Positions 1 to 11,715 of a stretch of 11,715 nt of DNA are shown piece after piece. Below the pieces are notes generated by a model. The model was given only the letters and a program-made list of their open reading frames with translations, was not told the DNA's origin and made no database searches. Made by a program: the position numbers and the translations under genes. Positions within the stretch are counted from its first letter, which is position 1; the number at the start of each line of letters is the position of its first letter. Origin of the DNA: a virus (Duplodnaviria; Heunggongvirae; Uroviricota; Caudoviricetes); the IMG/VR virus record IMGVR_UViG_2529292829_000009. The stretch is one strand, 5' to 3'.

Positions 1-240
1 ACAGATACTGAGGCACAGCATAACGCCGCAGTAGAAGCAGCAGAAGCACAGCGCCAGTCACTGATTGATGCAGCAATGGCTTCCATTAGTCTGATTCAGC
101 TGAAATTACAGGCCGGACGGAAACTGACTCAGGCAGAAACAACCCGACTTAACGCCGTGCTGGATTACATTGACGCGGTGACGGCAACAGATACCAGCAC
201 CGCGCCGGATGTCATCTGGCCTGAACTGCCGGAGGCGTAG
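1..240 (+). CDS. Tail fibre assembly protein (Tfa/gpG-like), C-terminal fragment; 5' end outside window
   Basis: Open frame 1 from position 1 to TAG at 238..240; translation ends ...[30 protein letters not shown], the C-terminal motif typical of phage Tfa chaperones; same orientation as the downstream tail operon. Confidence 0.7.
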
Positions 241-640
241 GCCATTCAATATCGGGTGCTGTTGAAGTATCAACACGCATCAGCAGCACACGGTATTTCT
301 TCCATTCGGTGAGAGTTGAAGTTTCTTCATCAGTTGCGATATCAGCATCAACAGCATCCTGACGCCAGGATATTTCACTGTCAGCTTTTTCCCGTAATTG
401 GGATTTTTTAACTTCAGCAATAGCTATTAATTCCTTTTTGGTCGGCTGAGGAATATCTATCAGTGCTGGTTTTCCATTCAGTGTTCCAATCTGTTTTCCT
501 GGTGGAATATCCATAAATAACTTTTTATGTTCTTCCTCACTGACTATTACACCATCATCAGGCCACAGACCTGATGCCTCAAATTTTTCTTTCTCCGATA
601 TGGGGAAAAAGCCATTTGCTTTAGCGCTCCATACGTACAT
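212..640 (-). CDS. Tail fibre assembly protein (Tfa), alternate cassette inside the invertible segment
   Basis: 142-aa ORF ending ...[39 protein letters not shown], matching the conserved Tfa C-terminus; convergent with and overlapping the + strand tfa fragment; start ATG 1 nt downstream of the stop of the 642..977 ORF. Confidence 0.8.
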
Positions 641-641
641 A

Positions 642-949
642 TCAATACCCCACCGCTATAATGTCCACATTAAATCCCCCGGGACCTGCCTGCCAGATGC
701 TGGCCCCTGTTAATGATTTTGTTTGATGAACAACCGCCACATTTGCTGGCGATAGTGTTTCAGTTGTTACAGTACCGATATCATTCCAGTTAATTGAGAT
801 GGAATAGTTCGTTGTTGTAAACGACCGGGGGAAAGTTATGTGTCTTGCATTGGTGCCAACAGGAAATCCAAGATAAACACGCTGAATTATCATTCCTCCA
901 GGTAACATAACCCAGTTAGCACCTTCTCCAAAACCAACGTTTAAGAAAA
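642..949 (-). CDS. Tail fibre protein C-terminal variable cassette (promoterless, no genuine start of its own; would be fused to the constant 5' part of the tail-fibre gene only after inversion)
   Basis: Minus-strand frame open from the crossover site down to TGA at 642..644, immediately followed by tfa; the ORF-track start at 977 lies outside the crossover site and is probably not a real start; arrangement mirrors Mu Sv'-U' and P1 cassettes. Confidence 0.5.
924..949. other. 26-bp hix/gix-like crossover site for the DNA invertase (TTCTCCAAAACC-AA-CGTTTAAGAAAA)
   Basis: Imperfect dyad of two 12-bp half-sites around a central AA; by my recollection of hixL (TTCTTGAAAACCAAGGTTTTTGATAA) about 20 of 26 positions match; lies inside the 5' end of the silent fibre cassette and about 55 bp upstream of the invertase start. 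Confidence 0.65.
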
Positions 950-1004
950 TGCAGAGGTAACAGCTAACTGGCATCATCTCCGGTTTTTATTCAGGGGGAT
1001 GCTC

Positions 1005-1571
1005 ATGCTTATTGGCTATGTACGCGTGTCAACAAATGACCAGAACACCGATTTGCAACGTAATGCACTGAACTGCGCGGGATGTGAGCGAATTTTTGAG
1101 GATAAAATCAGTGGCACTAAGTCCGACAGACCGGGGCTGAAAAAACTGCTCAGGACACTATCGGCAGGTGACACACTGGTTGTCTGGAAGCTGGACAGGT
1201 TGGGGCGCAGTATGCGGCATCTTGTTACGCTGATAGAAGAGTTGCGCCAGCGTGGCGTGAATTTCCGAAGCCTGACTGACAGTATTGATACCAGTACCCC
1301 AATGGGCCGTTTCTTTTTTCATGTCATGGGTGCCCTGGCTGAAATGGAACGCGAACTGATAGTTGAACGTACCAGGGCAGGGCTGGCTGCAGCTCGTGCC
1401 AAAGGCAGAGTAGGTGGGCGTCGTCCTAAGTTGACCACCGAACAGTGGGCACAGATTGGACGTTTACTCGAGGCCGGAGAATCAAGACAGCGTATTGCAC
1501 TGATTTTTGATGTGGGCGTTTCTACCATTTATAGAAAATTTCCGGTGAATGAGAGCAATGAATCGCCCTGA
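1005..1571 (+). CDS. pin: Serine DNA invertase, Hin/Gin/Cin/Pin (Din) family
   Basis: Translation from ATG 1005 begins MLIGYVRVSTNDQ (resolvase/invertase N-terminus with the catalytic Ser) and carries a C-terminal helix-turn-helix; GGGGG Shine-Dalgarno at 994..998; closely resembles e14 Pin as I remember it. The ORF-track start at 999 adds two residues and is less likely. Confidence 0.9.
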   Translation: MLIGYVRVSTNDQNTDLQRNALNCAGCERIFEDKISGTKSDRPGLKKLLRTLSAGDTLVVWKLDRLGRSMRHLVTLIEELRQRGVNFRSLTDSIDTSTPMGRFFFHVMGALAEMERELIVERTRAGLAAARAKGRVGGRRPKLTTEQWAQIGRLLEAGESRQRIALIFDVGVSTIYRKFPVNESNESP

Positions 1572-3902: not shown

Positions 3903-6900
3903 TAATAACCTGCGCCTGCAGGTCATTCTTAATGCGGTTGACAAACTCCCCCGCCCATTCCGTGCTGCACAGGCCAGTTCGAAAGAGCTGGCTGGCGCAA
4001 TCAGAAACTCCCGTGACGCATTAAAGCAACTCAATCAGGCGGGTAACAGCCTGGAAAAATTTCGCAAGCTGCAGGCAGATAACAAAAAGTTAGGCGACAG
4101 GCTGAACTATGCCAGACAGAAGGCTAATTTGCTTAGCTCTGAGCTGGAAGCGATGGAACAACCATCACAACGGCACCTTGTGGCTTTAGGTCGGCAAACG
4201 CTGGCAGTCCAACGCCTGGAAGAACAACAAAAATATTTGCAGAAGCAAACGGCGCTTGTGCGTGCAGAACTGTACCGGGCGGGAATTTCTGCGAAAGATG
4301 ATGCGGGAGCAACTGCCCGTTTAGCCCGTGAAACATCACGTTATAACCAGGAACTTTCGAAACAGGAGGCACGGCTGAAGCGACTGGGGGAAGCTCAGCG
4401 CAGGATGAATGCGGCGCGTGCCAGTTATGCCCGTTCACTGGAGGTGCGTGATCGTATTGCAGGTGCCGGAGCCACCACCACGGCTGCAGGGCTGGCAATG
4501 GGTGCGCCAGTGATGGCAGCAGTAAAAAGCTATACCAGCATGGAAGATGCCATGAAAGGTGTGGCAAAGCAGGTCAATGGTCTGCGTGATGATAATGGCA
4601 ACCGCACTGCGCGTTTTTACGAAATGCAGGATGCCTTCAAGGCTGCCAGCGAACAGTTGCCGATGGAAAACGGTGCGGTGGACTTCGCTGCACTGGTTGA
4701 AGGTGGTGCGCGCATGAACGTCGCAAACCCTGACGACAGCTGGAAAGACCAGAAACGTGACCTGCTGGCCTTCGCCAGTACGGCAGCAAAGGCGGCAACA
4801 GCCTTTGAGCTGCCAGCGGATGAACTGTCAGAAAGTCTGGGGAAAATCGCCCAGCTCTACAAAATACCTACCCGCAATATTGAACAGCTCGGCGATGCGC
4901 TGAACTATCTGGATGATAACGCCATGTCGAAAGGGGCGGACATCATTGATGTGATGCAACGTCTGGGCGGTGTGGCTGACCGTCTGGATTATCGTAAAGC
5001 GGCGGCGCTGGGTTCCACCTTCCTGACACTGGGAGCTGCGCCGGAGGTTGCAGCCAGTGCAGCAAACGCGATGGTGCGTGAATTATCCATTGCCACCATG
5101 CAGAGCAAGAGTTTCTTTGAAGGGATGAATCTGCTGAAACTCAATCCTGAAGTGATTGAAAAGCAGATGACGAAGGATGCGATGGGAACTATCCAGCGTG
5201 TTCTGGAGAAGGTGAACGCACTACCGCAGGATAAGCGACTGTCTGCCATGACCATGTTGTTTGGTAAAGAGTTTGGCGATGACGCGGCGAAACTGGCAAA
5301 CAACCTGCCGGAACTACAGCGCCAGCTAAAACTGACAGCGGGCAATGATGCGCTCGGTTCCATGCAGAAAGAATCCGACATCAACAAGGACTCACTTTCT
5401 GCTCAGTGGTTGCTGGTTAAAACCGGAGCGCAGAATACCTTCAGCAGCCTGGGCGAAACGCTGCGCCAGCCGCTGATGGATATTCTGTACACGGTGAAAA
5501 GCGTTACGGGAGCGTTGCGTCGCTGGGTGGAAGCTAACCCGGAACTGACGGGCACACTGATGAAAGTAGCCGCTATTGTGGCTGCGGTTACCGTAGGCCT
5601 CGGCACTTTGGCTGTGGCGCTGGCTGCAGTGCTGGGGCCGCTGGCAGTCATCCGTCTGGGGTTCTCTGTGCTGGGTATCAAAACGTTACCTTCCGTTACG
5701 GCAGCAGTAACTCGAACCAGCAGCGCGTTGTCCTGGCTGGCTGGCGCACCACTGGCACTGCTGCGACGCGGGCTTGCTTCATCGGGCAACGCCGCAGGTT
5801 TACTTACTGCGCCGTTGTCGTCTTTGCGCCGCACGGCATCACTGACGGGAAATGTCCTGAAAACTGTAGCAGGTGCGCCGGTTGCACTTTTGCGGTCTGG
5901 ATTATCCGGTTTACGTGCTGTTGCTGTGATGTTTATGAATCCTCTGGCGGTACTGCGCGGTGGACTGGCCGCCGCAGGCACGGTGCTGCGAGTACTGGCA
6001 TCTGGTCCACTGGCGATGCTGCGCGTTGCCCTGTATGCCGTATCTGGTCTGTTAGGTGCTCTGCTCAGTCCGATAGCTCTTGTGGTTACTGCACTGGCGG
6101 GCGTGGCGCTGGTTGTCTGGAAATACTGGCAACCCATCACCGCATTTCTTGGTGGCGTGGTGGAAGGATTCAAAGCTGCGGCAGGTCCAGTCAGTGCAGC
6201 ATTCGAACCGCTTAAGCCCGTGTTCCAGTGGATTGGCGACAAAGTACAGGCGTTGTGGGGCTGGTTTACTGATCTGCTGACGCCCGTTAAGTCGACCTCT
6301 GCCGAACTGCAGAGTGCAGCGGCAATGGGGCGGCGATTCGGGGAGGCACTGGCGGAAGGGCTGAATATGGTCATGCATCCGCTGGACTCCCTGAAATCCG
6401 GCGTTTCCTGGTTGCTGGAGAAACTCGGCGTTGTCAGTAAAGAGGCCGCAAAGGCGAAACTACCGGAAAGTGTGACGCGTCAGCAACCTGCGACGGTGAA
6501 TACAGACGGTAAAGTGATGATGCCATCGGGTGGTTTTCCGTCATGGGGATATGGCTTTGCGGGGATGTATGACAGCGGCGGCTATATCCCGCGCGGGCAG
6601 TTTGGCATCGTCGGTGAAAACGGGCCGGAAATTGTTAACGGCCCGGCAAACGTGACCAGCCGGAGAAATACAGCTGCACTGGCTGCCGTTGTTGCCGGAA
6701 TGATGGGCGTTGCTGCCGCGCCTGCAGAGCTTCCACCGTTGCATCCTTTGGCACTTCCCGCGAAAGGCGGCGAAGCGATGGTGAGTCGTGCAGCCACTGT
6801 GCCGCCCGTTCAACGGATTGAGGCACCGACGCAGATCATCATTCAGACGCAGCCAGGACAAAGTGCGCAGGATATTGCGCGGGAGGTGGCACGCCAGCTT

Positions 6901-6972
6901 GATGAACGTGAACGCAGGCTGAAGGCAAAAGCCAGGAGTAACTACAGCGATCAGGGGGGATACGACGCATGA
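3895..6972 (+). CDS. T: Tail tape measure protein (P2 gpT family)
   Basis: 1025 aa; coiled-coil-rich N-terminal region, hydrophobic Ala/Leu/Gly-rich repeats in the middle, a Gly-rich C-terminal motif (GMYDSGGYIPRGQFGIVGENGPEIVNG); position between E/E' and U. Confidence 0.88.
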   Translation: MSDNNLRLQVILNAVDKLPRPFRAAQASSKELAGAIRNSRDALKQLNQAGNSLEKFRKLQADNKKLGDRLNYARQKANLLSSELEAMEQPSQRHLVALGRQTLAVQRLEEQQKYLQKQTALVRAELYRAGISAKDDAGATARLARETSRYNQELSKQEARLKRLGEAQRRMNAARASYARSLEVRDRIAGAGATTTAAGLAMGAPVMAAVKSYTSMEDAMKGVAKQVNGLRDDNGNRTARFYEMQDAFKAASEQLPMENGAVDFAALVEGGARMNVANPDDSWKDQKRDLLAFASTAAKAATAFELPADELSESLGKIAQLYKIPTRNIEQLGDALNYLDDNAMSKGADIIDVMQRLGGVADRLDYRKAAALGSTFLTLGAAPEVAASAANAMVRELSIATMQSKSFFEGMNLLKLNPEVIEKQMTKDAMGTIQRVLEKVNALPQDKRLSAMTMLFGKEFGDDAAKLANNLPELQRQLKLTAGNDALGSMQKESDINKDSLSAQWLLVKTGAQNTFSSLGETLRQPLMDILYTVKSVTGALRRWVEANPELTGTLMKVAAIVAAVTVGLGTLAVALAAVLGPLAVIRLGFSVLGIKTLPSVTAAVTRTSSALSWLAGAPLALLRRGLASSGNAAGLLTAPLSSLRRTASLTGNVLKTVAGAPVALLRSGLSGLRAVAVMFMNPLAVLRGGLAAAGTVLRVLASGPLAMLRVALYAVSGLLGALLSPIALVVTALAGVALVVWKYWQPITAFLGGVVEGFKAAAGPVSAAFEPLKPVFQWIGDKVQALWGWFTDLLTPVKSTSAELQSAAAMGRRFGEALAEGLNMVMHPLDSLKSGVSWLLEKLGVVSKEAAKAKLPESVTRQQPATVNTDGKVMMPSGGFPSWGYGFAGMYDSGGYIPRGQFGIVGENGPEIVNGPANVTSRRNTAALAAVVAGMMGVAAAPAELPPLHPLALPAKGGEAMVSRAATVPPVQRIEAPTQIIIQTQPGQSAQDIAREVARQLDERERRLKAKARSNYSDQGGYDA

Positions 6973-7454
6973 TGATGGTGCTGGGATTGTATGTGTTTAT
7001 GCTGCGCACCGTGCCGTATCAGGAGCTGCAGTATCAGCGCAGCTGGCGACATGCGGCAAACAGCCGGGTTAACCGACGCCCGTCAACGCAGTTTCTGGGA
7101 CCGGACAACGACATGCTGACGCTTTCTGGTGTTCTTATGCCGGAGGTAACGGGCGGCAGGCTGTCGTTGCTGGCTCTGGAGCAGATGGCAGAACAGGGAA
7201 AAGCATGGCCCCTGATTGAAGGCAGCGGCACGATTTACGGCATGTATGTGATTGAGGGACTGAATCAGACTAAAACGGAGTTTTTCCGCGACGGTATGCC
7301 GCGCCGGATTGAGTTCACCCTGTCGCTCAAACGGGTGGATGAATCCCTGTCCGATATGTTCGGTGATCTCAGTACGCAACTGAATAATCTGCAGGACACG
7401 GCAACATCTGCCTTAAGTGATATCAGTAAAACGGTGGGAGGGCTGCTGTCGTGA
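6969..7454 (+). CDS. U: Tail protein gpU
   Basis: 161 aa; ATG overlaps the T stop (ATGA); GGGGGGA Shine-Dalgarno upstream; conserved position between T and D in P2-like phages. Confidence 0.85.
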   Translation: MMMVLGLYVFMLRTVPYQELQYQRSWRHAANSRVNRRPSTQFLGPDNDMLTLSGVLMPEVTGGRLSLLALEQMAEQGKAWPLIEGSGTIYGMYVIEGLNQTKTEFFRDGMPRRIEFTLSLKRVDESLSDMFGDLSTQLNNLQDTATSALSDISKTVGGLLS

Positions 7455-8551
7455 ATTTCAGCTCTGAACTGCTTAACAAAGGCAACAAAACTCCCGCATT
7501 CAGCATCAGTATTGAGGGCAGGGATATCACTACTGTGCTGGATAACCGTCTGATGAGTCTGACGTTGACGGACAATCGGGGCTTTGACGCGGACCAGCTT
7601 GATCTGGAGCTGGACGACGCCGACGGAAAAATCGTGCTGCCGCGCCGTGGTGCGGTCATTACGCTGGCGCTGGGCTGGAAGGGGCAGCCGCTTTTCCCGA
7701 AAGGGACATTCACGGTGGACGAGATTGAACACACTGGCGCGCCGGACCGCCTGACTATCCGGGCGCGAAGTGCTGATTTTCGGGAAACGCTGAATACCCG
7801 CCGTGAAAAATCGTGGCATAAGACCACCGTCGGGGAAGTGGTGAAGGAAATAGCCGCGCGGCACAAGCTGAAGATGGCACTGGGTAAAGACCTGTCGGAT
7901 AAGCCCGTGGAGCATATAGACCAGACTAATGAGAGTGACGGCAGTTTTCTGATGCGGCTGGCGCGACAGTACGGTGCCATCGCGTCGGTGAAAAATGGCA
8001 ATCTGTTATTCATCCGGCAGGGGCAGGGCAAAAGCGCCACTGGTAAACCTCTGCCAGTGATCACTATCACACGCAAGGACGGCGACAGTCACCGATTTAC
8101 CCTGGCAGATCGCGGAGCCTACACGGGCGTAATTGCCAGCTGGTTGCATACCCGCGAACCTGCGAAGAAAGAAAGCACCACGGTGAAGCGTAAGCGCAGA
8201 ACTAAGAAGCAGAAGAAAGAGCCAGAAGCGAAGCAGGGCGATTATCTGGTGGGTACGGATGAAAACGTGCTGGTACTTAATCGCACTTATGCCAACCGGA
8301 GCAACGCCGAACGAGCGGCGAAAATGCAGTGGGAACGCCTGCAACGCGGCGTTGCGTCATTTTCGCTACAACTGGCAGAAGGGCGGGCAGATCTCTACAC
8401 GGAAATGCCTGTGAAGGTCAGTGGTTTTAAACAGCCGATAGATGATGCGGAATGGACCATTACGACTCTGACACATACCGTCAGCCCGGATAACGGTTTT
8501 ACGACCAGTCTGGAGCTTGAAGTGAGGATTGATGATTTCGAAATGGAATGA
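7451..8551 (+). CDS. D: Late control gene D protein (gpD; VgrG-N-terminus / baseplate-hub-like tail protein)
   Basis: 366 aa; GTG start overlapping the U stop (GTGA) with a GGTGGGAGGG Shine-Dalgarno; last gene of the FETUD operon, immediately before ogr. Confidence 0.85.
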   Translation: MNFSSELLNKGNKTPAFSISIEGRDITTVLDNRLMSLTLTDNRGFDADQLDLELDDADGKIVLPRRGAVITLALGWKGQPLFPKGTFTVDEIEHTGAPDRLTIRARSADFRETLNTRREKSWHKTTVGEVVKEIAARHKLKMALGKDLSDKPVEHIDQTNESDGSFLMRLARQYGAIASVKNGNLLFIRQGQGKSATGKPLPVITITRKDGDSHRFTLADRGAYTGVIASWLHTREPAKKESTTVKRKRRTKKQKKEPEAKQGDYLVGTDENVLVLNRTYANRSNAERAAKMQWERLQRGVASFSLQLAEGRADLYTEMPVKVSGFKQPIDDAEWTITTLTHTVSPDNGFTTSLELEVRIDDFEME

Positions 8552-8641
8552 CTCTTCGCAATGGAGAACTTTTAAGTTTGTAAAATGGAATAATGCGGTA
8601 TCATTGTTGTGAATTTAGCAAAAATGGGGAGAACTCGAAAA

Positions 8642-8860
8642 ATGATGATTTGCCCACTGTGTGGAAGTGCCGCCCATACTCGCAGCAGTTTTCAGGTATC
8701 TTCATTGACCAAAGAGCGTTACAACCAGTGCCAGAACATTAACTGCAGCCATACTTTTGTTACCCATGAAACTTTTGTTCGTTCGATTGCAACGCCAAAA
8801 GAGTCAAATCCGGTTCAGCCGCATCCAATGAAATCAGGACAGGTGGCGCTCTCTCTTTGA
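8642..8860 (+). CDS. ogr: Late gene transcriptional activator Ogr (C4 zinc finger, Ogr/Delta family)
   Basis: 72 aa from ATG 8642 with a GGGGAG Shine-Dalgarno 10 nt upstream; Cys4, Cys7, Cys30, Cys35 give C-x2-C-x22-C-x4-C; the motifs CPLC...TKERY.QCQN.NC match P2 Ogr. Confidence 0.85.
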   Translation: MMICPLCGSAAHTRSSFQVSSLTKERYNQCQNINCSHTFVTHETFVRSIATPKESNPVQPHPMKSGQVALSL

Positions 8861-9095
8861 CGCTGCCGCCATTTTGTCGCCATCATTAAAAAACAGTGCT
8901 TCTAACTTCATGATTTTAAAAGGCATAAATTTCAGGCAACAAAAAACCCATCAACCTTGAACCGAAATGGCGGGGGTGATGGGCTCCACAAAATGGGGAC
9001 ATCAAAGAAAAGCAGTGGCACTAATTAAGACTGATGCCCTGCGGAAAAGTTCTGCGGTTGTGCAAAAAAATTTCATTTTCAGGGCAACTTCAGTT
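8861..9095. other. Prophage/host junction region (attR expected here; core not identified)
   Basis: AT-rich 235-bp non-coding gap between the last phage gene (ogr) and the 3' end of host ybjL; in P2 the attachment site lies directly downstream of ogr. Confidence 0.4.
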
Positions 9096-10781
9096 TTATC
9101 CTAATCCTGGCCATACCATGACGATGATTGTCCCTGCCAGCGTCAGCAGGACGTTGGCGATTGCATAGGTGCCCGCATAGCCCAGCGCCGGGATGTTACT
9201 GCGAGCTGTATCACTGATGATCTCCATTGCCGGCGCGCAGGTACGTGCGCCCATCATTGCGCCGAACAACAGCGCGCGGTTCATTCGCAATACATAAGCA
9301 CCGAACAAGAAACAGATAACCACGGGCACCAGACTGACAATCAATCCGGCAATCAACATCTGACCGCCAATCGCGCCCAGGCCGTTATTAATACCGCTAC
9401 CGGCGCTCAGACCAACGCCTGCCATAAACACCATCAAGCCGAACTCTTTCACCATGCTTAATGCACCCTGCGGAATGTAACCGAAGGTCGGGTGGTTAGC
9501 ACGCATAAAGCCCAGCATAATTCCGGCGAATAACAACCCGGCAGCGTTCCCCATGCCGAAACTGAATGTGCTGAACTGGAAGGTGATCATCCCGATCATC
9601 AGCCCAATAACAAAGAAGGCGCAGAATGCCAGCAGGTCAGTGACCTGGCTGTGAATCGAGATAAAGCCGATGCGATCGGCGATGGTTTTTACGCGGCGGG
9701 CATCGCCGCTGACTTGTAAAACGTCACCTTTGTTAAGCACGACGTTGTCATCTATCGGCATCTCAATCTGGCTACGAATGACGCGGTTAAGGAAGCAACC
9801 GTGATCGGTCAACTTCAGTTGTGCGAGACGTTTACCTACAGCGTTATGGTTTTTAACGACCACTTCTTCAGTGACGATACGCATGTCGAGAAGGTCACGA
9901 TCGAAAACTTCTTTACCGTTACGGAAGCTGGGATCGAGTCGGGCATGGGCGTCGGGATAGCCTACCAACGCTATTTCATCGCCCATTTGTAGCACGGCAT
10001 CACCGTCTGGATTTGCCAGAATCCCGTTACGTCGAATACGTTCAATGTAGCAGCCGGTTTGTCGATAAATACCCAGTTCACGCAGATTTTTGCCGTCGGT
10101 CCAGGCCACCAGTTCCGGGCCGACGCGATAGGCGCGGATCACCGGTAAATAAACCTTACGGTTGGCATCAGTGTCCAGGCCACGTTCGCGGGCGATTTGC
10201 TGGGCGCTGGTCTGTAAGTCCTGATGCTGCAATTTCGGCAAGTAACGCGCACCAACAATCAAACTCACCAGACCGATTAAATAGGTTAAGGCATACCCGA
10301 GGCTCAGATTATCCAGTGCCAGTGAGAGCTGCCTGCTTTCCATGCCGGAATGACGCAGTGTATCGCCAGCACCGACCAGAACCGGTGTCGACGTCATAGA
10401 GCCTGCTAACATACCGGCCGTCAGGCCAATATCCCAGCCAAACAGCTTACCTAACCCTAAGGCGATCACCAGCGCACTGCCAACCATCACCAGTGCTAAC
10501 ATTAGGTAATTTTTCCCATCGCGAAAAAAAATGGAAAAAAAGTTCGGTCCGGCTTCGACCCCGACGCAGAAAATAAACAGCATAAAGCCAAGATTAAGCG
10601 CATCGGTGTTAATGCTGAAATGTTGTTGGCCTAATAACAGCGATACGACTAAAACGCCAATGGAATTACCCAGTTGGATCGAACCAAGTCGTAACTTTCC
10701 GAGACATAGCCCAAGCGCGAGGACCACAAATAATAACAGAATGTAATTCCCATTTAACAATTCGGCGACGTTTATATTCAC
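9096..10781 (-). CDS. ybjL: Putative transporter YbjL (AAE/YidE-YbjL family membrane protein with two cytoplasmic TrkA-C/RCK_C domains)
   Basis: 561 aa with hydrophobic N- and C-terminal halves around a soluble central region; GTG start (CAC on + at 10779..10781); matches E. coli YbjL in length and sequence as I remember it, and in its neighbours ybjM and grxA. Confidence 0.9.
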
Positions 10782-11050
10782 GGAGGCTAACTTCTTGTTT
10801 ACTAGTAAGCTGTTGAAAGAAATGGTAATTTACGATAATGTTTTTTACCAGAATTCAGGGCGCAGATTCATTCAGCGCACCTAAACGATAGTAAAGTAAC
10901 AATATATTTTACTAGTGTAATCACATTAGGTATCAACGGCTATATGAATTGCGTTGGCCTATATTAGCATGGAATGCGAAGCGGCTTTATCTTACTGAAC
11001 GCCACACTGGCGAAAAATGTGTTCGATAGACGCAGTGTCAGGAGGAACGA

Positions 11051-11428
11051 GTGAAACATAAACAACGTTGGGCGGGGGCAATCTGCTGTTTTGTCCTCTT
11101 CATTGTGGTGTGCCTTTTTCTGGCGACGCACATGAAAGGCGCTTTTCGGGCTGCCGGGCATCCTGAAATCGGCTTGCTATTTTTCATTCTTCCTGGAGCA
11201 GTCGCCAGCTTCTTTTCACAGCGTAGAGAAGTCCTGAAACCTCTGTTTGGCGCAATGCTGGCGGCACCCTGTTCGATGCTCATTATGCGGCTGTTTTTTT
11301 CACCGACGCGCTCATTCTGGCAAGAGCTGGCATGGTTACTAAGCGCGGTGTTCTGGTGTGCGCTGGGGGCACTGTGTTTCTTATTTATCAGTAGTTTGTT
11401 TAAACCACAGCACAGAAAAAATCAGTAA
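11051..11428 (+). CDS. ybjM: Inner membrane protein YbjM
   Basis: 125-aa hydrophobic protein; GTG start preceded by GGAGG at 11041..11045; sits between ybjL and grxA as in E. coli K-12. Confidence 0.85.
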   Translation: MKHKQRWAGAICCFVLFIVVCLFLATHMKGAFRAAGHPEIGLLFFILPGAVASFFSQRREVLKPLFGAMLAAPCSMLIMRLFFSPTRSFWQELAWLLSAVFWCALGALCFLFISSLFKPQHRKNQ

Positions 11429-11448
11429 AGCCCTCAACGCGAGGGCTT
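11427..11448. terminator. Probable bidirectional intrinsic terminator between convergent ybjM and grxA
   Basis: Hairpin AAAGCCCTC-AACGC-GAGGGCTT overlapping the ybjM stop; on the minus strand the stem is followed by a T-rich stretch (TTTACTGATTTTTT), a good terminator for grxA. Confidence 0.6.
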
Positions 11449-11457
11449 GTCAGACGA

Positions 11458-11715
11458 TCAGGCGTCCAGATTTTCTTTCACCCATGCAGCAAAATCGGTA
11501 TAGCCGCCGATATGTTGCTGATCGACAAAAATCTGCGGCACGGTTTCTACGGGGTTACCTGCCTTTTGTTGTAGATCTTCTTTAGTGATCCCTTCCGCAC
11601 GAATATCTACATACTGATACTGAAAATCATCGCGTTCATTGCTCAATTTCTCAGCCAGATCTTTTGCACGCACACAGTAAGGGCAACCCGAACGACCAAA
11701 AATAACGGTTTGCAT
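11458..11715 (-). CDS. grxA: Glutaredoxin 1
   Basis: 85 aa, MQTVIFGRSGCPYCVRAKDLAEKL... with the CPYC active site; the start codon is the last three bases of the window (ATG on the minus strand at 11713..11715). Confidence 0.95.
   Translation of the reverse strand: MQTVIFGRSGCPYCVRAKDLAEKLSNERDDFQYQYVDIRAEGITKEDLQQKAGNPVETVPQIFVDQQHIGGYTDFAAWVKENLDA

Follow-up and report, generated by a model that had tools for sequence, protein, structure and literature searches.

The stretch of DNA analysed here, called the window, is the whole 11,715 nt of IMG/VR record IMGVR_UViG_2529292829_000009, and all coordinates are counted from its first letter. It corresponds to nt 2–11716 of the draft contig AQDU01000089.1 (GCA_000355575.2), 1 nt from the contig end, which falls within an invertible segment at window position 1. 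Analysis of the gene content showed an intact P2-like prophage tail module, with host genes after it. The genes found at the locus are listed below.

1–240, plus strand: 3' part (79 codons) of a tail-fibre assembly gene, from the cassette expressed at present and truncated by the contig end (Pfam Caudo_TAP)
212–640, minus strand: tail-fibre assembly (chaperone) gene of the silent cassette (Pfam Caudo_TAP, E = 1e-33)
642–935, minus strand: silent alternative C-terminal fibre cassette, 97 codons, Gp53-like_C (Pfam PF21882 match)
642–977, minus strand: 111-codon ORF running through the crossover site and including the silent cassette, with a mechanical start at ATG 977 (Gp53-like_C fibre-tip domain)
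1005–1571, plus strand: serine DNA invertase, 188 aa (Pfam Resolvase and HTH_7)
from 1714, plus strand: sheath, tube, gpE/E', tape measure, gpU, gpD and ogr, then host genes including ybjM and grxA

The gene order, namely fibre, tfa, tfa', cassette', invertase and sheath, matches that of Fels-2. The segment contains two convergent Caudo_TAP genes, each cassette being accompanied by its own assembly chaperone gene; these genes share 29 nt at their 3' ends (212–240), as they also do in the relatives and in e14 (tfaP/tfaE). The relatives used for comparison (designated L001 and so on) are complete E. coli genomes 96–98% identical to the window, together with contigs encoding exactly the same invertase or the same cassette ORF; those holding both segment ends make up the 19 related loci referred to below. 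A full-length 197-aa counterpart of the truncated assembly gene was found in L001 and L013–L020. The cassette expressed in the relatives encodes a different tip (501-aa fibre type), whereas Gp53-like_C is encoded by the silent cassette.

The end of the prophage late region is marked by an Ogr/Delta-type gene (8609–8860), followed by host genes at 9096–11715, encoding an Asp-Al_Ex transporter (minus strand), YbjM and GrxA, which places the prophage/host junction at roughly 8.9–9.1 kb. The prophage lies beside smpB instead in L013, L014 and L019, and therefore at least two integration sites are used. Outside the window, differing cargo genes are inserted in the relatives between the tail-completion gene S and the baseplate gene V; they encode a TIR_2-domain protein, a 283-aa protein without a Pfam match and an AAA ATPase (15337–16137 in L016 and L020, 3663–4514 in L003, position 1–577 in L012 and L025). 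The S–V interval of these otherwise similar P2-like prophages looks like a variable, possibly defence-related, hotspot.

Between the silent cassette and the invertase gene, 55 bp upstream of the invertase ORF, the window contains the sequence TTCTCCAAAACCAACGTTTAAGAAAA, that is, TTCTCCAAAACC-AA-CGTTTAAGAAAA, composed of the following elements, for which no strand is assigned.

924–949: Din-family (pix-type) crossover site of 26 bp, bounding the invertible fibre segment on the invertase side (position weight matrix, identity to e14)
924–935: inner half-site TTCTCCAAAACC, within the invertible segment, moving with the cassette and encoding GFGE on the minus strand
936–937: central AA dinucleotide, TT on the minus strand (partner core TT, natural exchange, P1 annotation)
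938–949: outer half-site CGTTTAAGAAAA, fixed beside the invertase gene (unchanged between L003 and L006 and between L012 and L025)

The first-pass annotation had described a 12-2-12 imperfect dyad with an AA core at these positions, and the sequence bears this out, the arm TTCTCCAAAACC and the reverse-complemented other arm TTTTCTTAAACG agreeing at 8/12 positions. The 26-bp site is unique in the window at up to 3 mismatches. A half-site position weight matrix was built from 8 distinct half-sites of Mu gix, P1 cix and Salmonella hix, read from real records and including none from the prophage family of the window. With this matrix the site scored 28.2 bits; of the six training sites, scored in-sample, five reached 27.3–30.9 bits, and the sixth, a weak hix site, 20.4 bits. 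The second-best 26-mer in the window scored 15.3 bits, and in 1000 random windows generated with a first-order Markov model the maxima averaged 10.3 bits, the highest being 19.6, so that 28.2 bits was reached in 0/1000. The dyad at 924–949 is far beyond chance.

Alignment with gix, cix, hix and pix sites, which had been proposed as a check, revealed a common 12-2-12 architecture, with 24/26 identity to the e14 site beside pinE. The comparison sites, read from sequence records, are as follows.

Mu (annotated G-segment boundaries): TTATCCAAAACC-TC-GGTTTACAGGAA and TTCCTGTAAACC-GA-GGTTTTGGATAA
P1 (crossover annotated at the central position, AF234172): cixL CAATCCTAAACC-TT-GGTTTAAGAGAA and cixR TTCTCTTAAACC-AA-GGTATTGGATAA
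Salmonella hix: TTATCAAAAACC-TT-GGTTTTCAAGAA
e14 of K-12: CTCTCGAAAACC-TT-GGTTTGGGAGAA and TTCTCCCAAACC-AA-CGTTTATGAAAA
Fels-2: TTCTCACATACC-TC-GGTTTAGGCGAA and TTCGCCTAAACC-GA-GGTTTATGAAAA

The hixL 26-mer TTCTTGAAAACCAAGGTTTTTGATAA has an exact match in a genome of S. enterica subsp. diarizonae, while a text search of papers gave no literal match to it. The outer half-site CGTTTAAGAAAA is kept in e14 as CGTTTATGAAAA, and in both elements it carries a C beside the core (CGTTT), where G is usual; this C is a point against the assignment, tempered by its presence in e14. The inversion repeats of the e14 P segment, a segment shown experimentally to be inverted by PinE and PinQ, are TTGGTTTGGGAGAAGG and CCTTCTCCCAAACCAA (PMC12529663); window positions 922–937, CCTTCTCCAAAACCAA, differ from CCTTCTCCCAAACCAA by one mismatch. 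The counterpart of 924–949 in e14 is the site beside pinE, and in Mu it is the gix nearer to gin. When the window is compared with prophages or phages that have this invertase and other cassettes, homology starts at 916–923, the left edge of the site; accordingly, the site and the invertase are conserved as a unit, with interchangeable cassettes. Taken as a whole, 924–949 is a genuine crossover site of the Hin/Gin/Cin/Pin type and delimits a flip-flop segment on the invertase side.

The minus-strand ORF 977→642 reads IFLNVGFGE through the site, in frame. This peptide had been placed at the 5' end of the silent cassette; the minus-strand translation and the frame are right, but the residues IFLN lie outside the cassette. 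They never enter a fibre, because their codons constitute the outer half-site, which is fixed beside the invertase gene, and the share of the cassette in the site is only the core and the inner half (..V/L-GFGE..).

A search of the window allowing up to 3 mismatches found no partner site, and no further sequence of the Din type exceeded 15.3 bits. The partner lies outside the window because the draft contig ends inside the invertible segment, and for this reason it was looked for in the relatives. In all 19 related loci the fibre gene harbours the partner TTCTCACATACC-TT-GGTTTGGGAGAA, inverted relative to the invertase-side site and in some of the loci with G at position 6; its core TT on the plus strand is the complement of AA. 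The distance from the partner to the invertase-side site is 1732–1923 bp. By analogy, the partner of this strain is expected on another contig of the draft assembly, approximately 0.8 kb upstream of window position 1.

The fibre frame passes through the partner as ...L-T-Y-L-G-L-G-E-G-A..., and the silent copy reads ...N-V-G-F-G-E-G-A.... The core TT occupies codon positions 2 and 3 in both copies, in the codon CTT for Leu of the fibre gene and in the codon GTT for Val of the silent ORF, and exchange therefore gives ...LTYL/GFGEGANW... in frame (the slash marks the junction). The expectation of the first-pass annotation that inversion makes an in-frame fusion with the constant part of the fibre gene was thereby borne out: in 19/19 related loci the constant fibre frame is open into both the expressed and the silent cassette, and the fibre ORF, of 447–528 aa, is open as found and after in-silico inversion. 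Neither absence of the partner nor an out-of-frame fusion, the two findings named beforehand as speaking against the site, occurred in any relative. Fusion of the silent cassette in silico to the constant fibre part gives a 447-aa ORF, and the same junction is present in real genomes; in L025, in which the segment is inverted, a fused 447-aa fibre is followed by a 142-aa tfa, the chaperone of the silent cassette. The fibre ORF of L006 is shortened, to 474 aa from the expected 509. In RefSeq, the uninterrupted 501/507-aa fibre ORF of L001 (3142–4647) and of the same region of L002 is split into two ‘incomplete’ pseudogene fragments, which is an annotation artefact in a repetitive, mosaic fibre gene.

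Comparison of closely related prophages showed both orientations of the segment. L003 and L006, which encode exactly the invertase of the window, have flanks at least 99.9% identical; their 1.87-kb segments are 99.84% identical in opposite orientations, and the only overlap between direct and inverted alignments is within the 18 bp at each site. Between L012 (strain CUVET24-CCU22) and L025 (strain WP8-S17-ESBL-05), the prophage is 99.6–99.9% identical, and the segment is again inverted. The left site reads ...CC-TT-GGTTTgGGAGAA in L012 and ...CC-TT-GGTTTtGGAGAA in L025, and the right site reads TTCTCCaAAACC-AA-... in L012 and TTCTCCcAAACC-AA-... in L025. The inner half-sites, marked by an A/C (G/T) polymorphism, trade sides and the outer halves stay fixed, and hence the exchange took place within TTGGTTT, a 7-bp interval containing the core. 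A synthetic inverted junction, in which the constant fibre part of L001 was fused at TT to the silent cassette of the window itself, was found over its full length with 99.4–99.7% identity in 3 complete E. coli genomes; at a coverage of at least 80% it was present in 19 complete E. coli genomes. The window-type junction was present in 82. The segment inverts, with exchange at the core, in this prophage family. In this particular strain the segment would be expected to invert as well, by analogy with these relatives. Phase-variable inversion in P2-like prophages of EPEC was reported from whole-genome sequencing (PMC4272514).

Three further candidates for inversion were rejected. L003 and L004 do not form a pure inversion pair, one cassette differing as well (93.8% identity and a 57-nt length difference). 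The sister isolates CUVET23-RF4 and CUVET24-CCU22 were considered as a within-clone inversion, but the RF4 segment is approximately 81% identical both ways, with many indels. A 3.7-kb ‘segment’ of L007, considered as a shufflon, proved to be a scaffold gap of Ns.

Several draft assemblies have peculiarities at the sites. In L011 (E. coli CUVET23-RF4), the region 3978–5845 is approximately 81% identical to its sisters both directly and inverted, and its flanks are 99.9–100% identical; this segment is probably a consensus of reads from both orientations. The contig L021 begins exactly at the core TT of the fibre-side site, the contigs L022 and L010 begin 21 and 15 nt inside the segment, and in the L007 scaffold the N gap (6269–9918) is flanked by the two sites. 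Breaks of draft assemblies at these repeats fit a mixed orientation in the sequenced cultures, since such mixtures would produce them.

The predicted recombination machinery comprises the invertase gene and two candidate elements in and before it.

969–977, plus strand: conserved motif TGGCATCAT between the site and the invertase start, common to the window, e14, Fels-2 and Mu
1023–1094, plus strand: putative recombinational (Fis) enhancer, homologue of the annotated P1 cin enhancer (cin nt 19–90)

The invertase contains the Resolvase domain (E = 2.4e-53) and a C-terminal HTH_7 domain, with the nucleophile Ser9 within YVRVSTNDQ, and is 86.8% identical to Fin of Fels-2, 77% to Cin of P1 and 73% to Gin of Mu; an identical protein is encoded in 813 blocks of the contig collection. 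The region 1023–1094 aligns without gaps to the 5' coding regions of P1 cin, Mu gin, e14 pinE, the Fels-2 invertase gene and Salmonella hin. It contains two G-N13-C 15-mers, at 1026–1040 and 1075–1089, the first of them approximately 97 bp from the core; in the native Hin system the nearer site is approximately 100 bp from the enhancer (PMC3798978). Extra synonymous conservation over the putative enhancer was not significant (2/15 vs 2/66 invariant codons, p = 0.15). By homology, inversion would depend on Fis and the enhancer here as well.

The spacer between the site and the invertase gene aligns with those of e14, Fels-2 and Mu, all of which contain the motif in the form TGGCAT(C/G)AT. The motif is possibly an extended -10 element of the invertase promoter; a scan with the sigma-70 consensus called no promoter for the invertase gene or for the minus-strand ORF. 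A weak terminator-like hairpin with a T-run (AACTGGCATCATCTCCGGTT TTTATT) at 966–985 on the plus strand overlaps the conserved motif. The complement of the motif is ATGATG at 977–972 on the minus strand, an in-frame start outside the segment, which is behind the 111-aa ‘gp53-like domain-containing protein’ of annotation pipelines.

The reading that best explains these data, to which we assign a probability of about 0.93, is that 924–949 is the invertase-proximal site of an invertible fibre segment of approximately 1.75 kb in a P2-like E. coli prophage. Dimers of the 188-aa invertase would bind 924–949 and the inverted partner inside the fibre gene, and a synapsed tetramer would form with the participation of host Fis bound to the enhancer in the 5' end of the invertase gene. 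Staggered cuts of 2 bp at the central AA/TT, the presumed point of cleavage and exchange, 180-degree rotation of one subunit pair and religation would then flip the segment. For the Din family, this mechanism, including invertase dimers, a Fis-bound enhancer, a 2-nt stagger and 180-degree subunit rotation, has been reviewed (PMC3798978), and the cleavage chemistry at AA/TT is proposed here by analogy with it. Inversion would swap the C-terminal receptor-binding domain of the fibre in frame, from ...LTYL/GLGEGA... to ...LTYL/GFGEGANW..., and place the matching chaperone gene (212–640) behind the fibre gene, the outcome being two host-range variants of the phage. Since the C-terminal domains differ and the chaperone genes are paired, a change of host range is predicted as the consequence of inversion.

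Among other explanations, the ORF 642–977 may be not silent and may encode a free 111-aa gp53-like protein translated from its own ATG (977 or 974), the site then toggling two expressed products. This is unlikely. Its 14-aa leader does resemble the leader MMPFACYFFIFINV of e14 StfE2, with a gp53-like domain following in both, and an in-frame ATG is present at the equivalent position in Fels-2 and Mu; StfE2, a chimera of the MMPFACYFFIFINV leader and a gp53-like domain, was reported to have anti-phage activity when expressed from a plasmid, blocking adsorption of T2 (PMC12529663). However, in the window GGAG abuts the ATG at a spacing of 0–3 nt, which makes a poor ribosome-binding site, the promoter scan found no promoter-like site reading in the minus-strand direction, and 13 stop-free codons arise by chance with a probability of about 0.5. 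The conserved ATG, moreover, complements TGGCAT(C/G)AT, whose position better suits a -10 element of the invertase promoter. Such expression would in any case add to the inversion mechanism and not replace it. It seems improbable that the ORF 977→642 is expressed as a free StfE2-like protein masking outer-membrane receptors and protecting the lysogen from other phages; were it so, the crossover site would switch between a virion host-range function and a host-defence function, and other Pin-type invertases present in the cell could flip it in trans as well.

Another explanation accepts 924–949 as a genuine Din-type site by descent and supposes that the switch is frozen in this strain through loss or mutation of the partner, a silent invertase or a defective prophage. 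The partner is not observable in this draft contig, many prophage switches decay (stfE of e14 is annotated as a pseudogene in K-12), and the shortened fibre ORF of L006 points in the same direction. We consider a frozen switch very unlikely: the invertase ORF is intact and its exact protein is widespread in the contig collection (the 813 blocks given above), the P2-like tail module is intact throughout the window, 19/19 relatives retain the two sites and the two frames, and several draft assemblies break exactly at the sites, as populations of mixed orientation would cause them to do. It is scarcely credible that the dyad is no DNA signal at all, having arisen by chance or as a by-product of conservation of the G-[FL]-G-E-G-A linker at the start of the fibre tip. 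The inner halves of the site and of its partner both encode G(F/L)GEGA, and therefore coding constraint alone would keep part of the repeat; the outer half and the spacer, however, lie outside any fibre and are conserved with e14, an element unrelated to P2, and the matrix score is far above the null. Together with that score, the natural inversions, whose breakpoints lie within the site, effectively refute an origin through protein conservation or chance.

The assignment of 924–949 to the boundary of an invertible fibre segment marks the exact limit of a phase-variable region. This accounts for the breaks of draft assemblies at this place, for the orphan ‘gp53-like’ ORFs and the fibre-gene pseudogene fragments in pipeline annotations, and for the loss of homology at 916–923 between prophages that are identical elsewhere. 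The practical value lies in annotation and in the prediction of two host-range variants from this prophage. The system itself is already known, belonging to a long-known family in a Fels-2-type P2-like context, and mechanistically it offers nothing new.

Of the known systems, the P segment of e14, approximately 1.8 kb long and with the sites of PinE lying within stfP and stfE, shares with the window an invertase-side site differing at 2 of 26 nt, the AA/TT core, the unusual C of the outer half, an equal distance from site to invertase, a similar spacer, paired tfa genes and a cassette of the gp53-like type; PinE and the window invertase are near-identical over their N-terminal 135 residues. 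The backgrounds differ: e14 is lambdoid and defective, and its fibre gene is truncated, whereas the switch described here lies between H (fibre) and FI (sheath) in a P2-like tail module that appears complete. On the fibre side, the outer half is TTCTCACATACC in relatives of the window and CTCTCGAAAACC in e14. Fels-2, a P2-like prophage of Salmonella, has the order gpI, fibre H, G, G', H', invertase and FI sheath, the closely similar invertase Fin (86.8% identity) and the same fibre-side outer half TTCTCACATACC, but it differs in the core, TC/GA as in Mu, in the length of the segment, approximately 2.7 kb, and in its cassettes.

The G segment of Mu resembles the window in its 26-bp 12-2-12 sites, one of which lies at the junction of the constant and variable parts of the fibre gene S and the other near the invertase gene, approximately 67 bp upstream of its start, as well as in having alternative cassettes (S/U and S'/U'), in the 73% identity of Gin and in the position of the enhancer, putative in the window, at the 5' end of the gene for the invertase; it is distinguished by the core TC/GA, the outer halves TTATCCAAAACC, a segment of 3 kb and an unrelated phage backbone. 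In the C segment of P1, the inner half-site TTCTCTTAAACC is nearly the same as TTCTCCAAAACC of the window, the core is AA/TT, cin has an annotated enhancer (nt 19–90), and Cin is 77% identical to the window invertase; in contrast to the window, the 4.2-kb segment lies downstream of cin, whose 3' end overlaps with cixL. The H segment of Salmonella also has 26-bp sites with an AA/TT core; its proximal site is approximately 100 bp from the enhancer (PMC3798978), close to the spacing of the putative enhancer of the window. Hin, however, flips a promoter controlling flagellin genes, with no coding fusion, and its gene lies inside the invertible segment, whereas the invertase gene of the window lies outside it.
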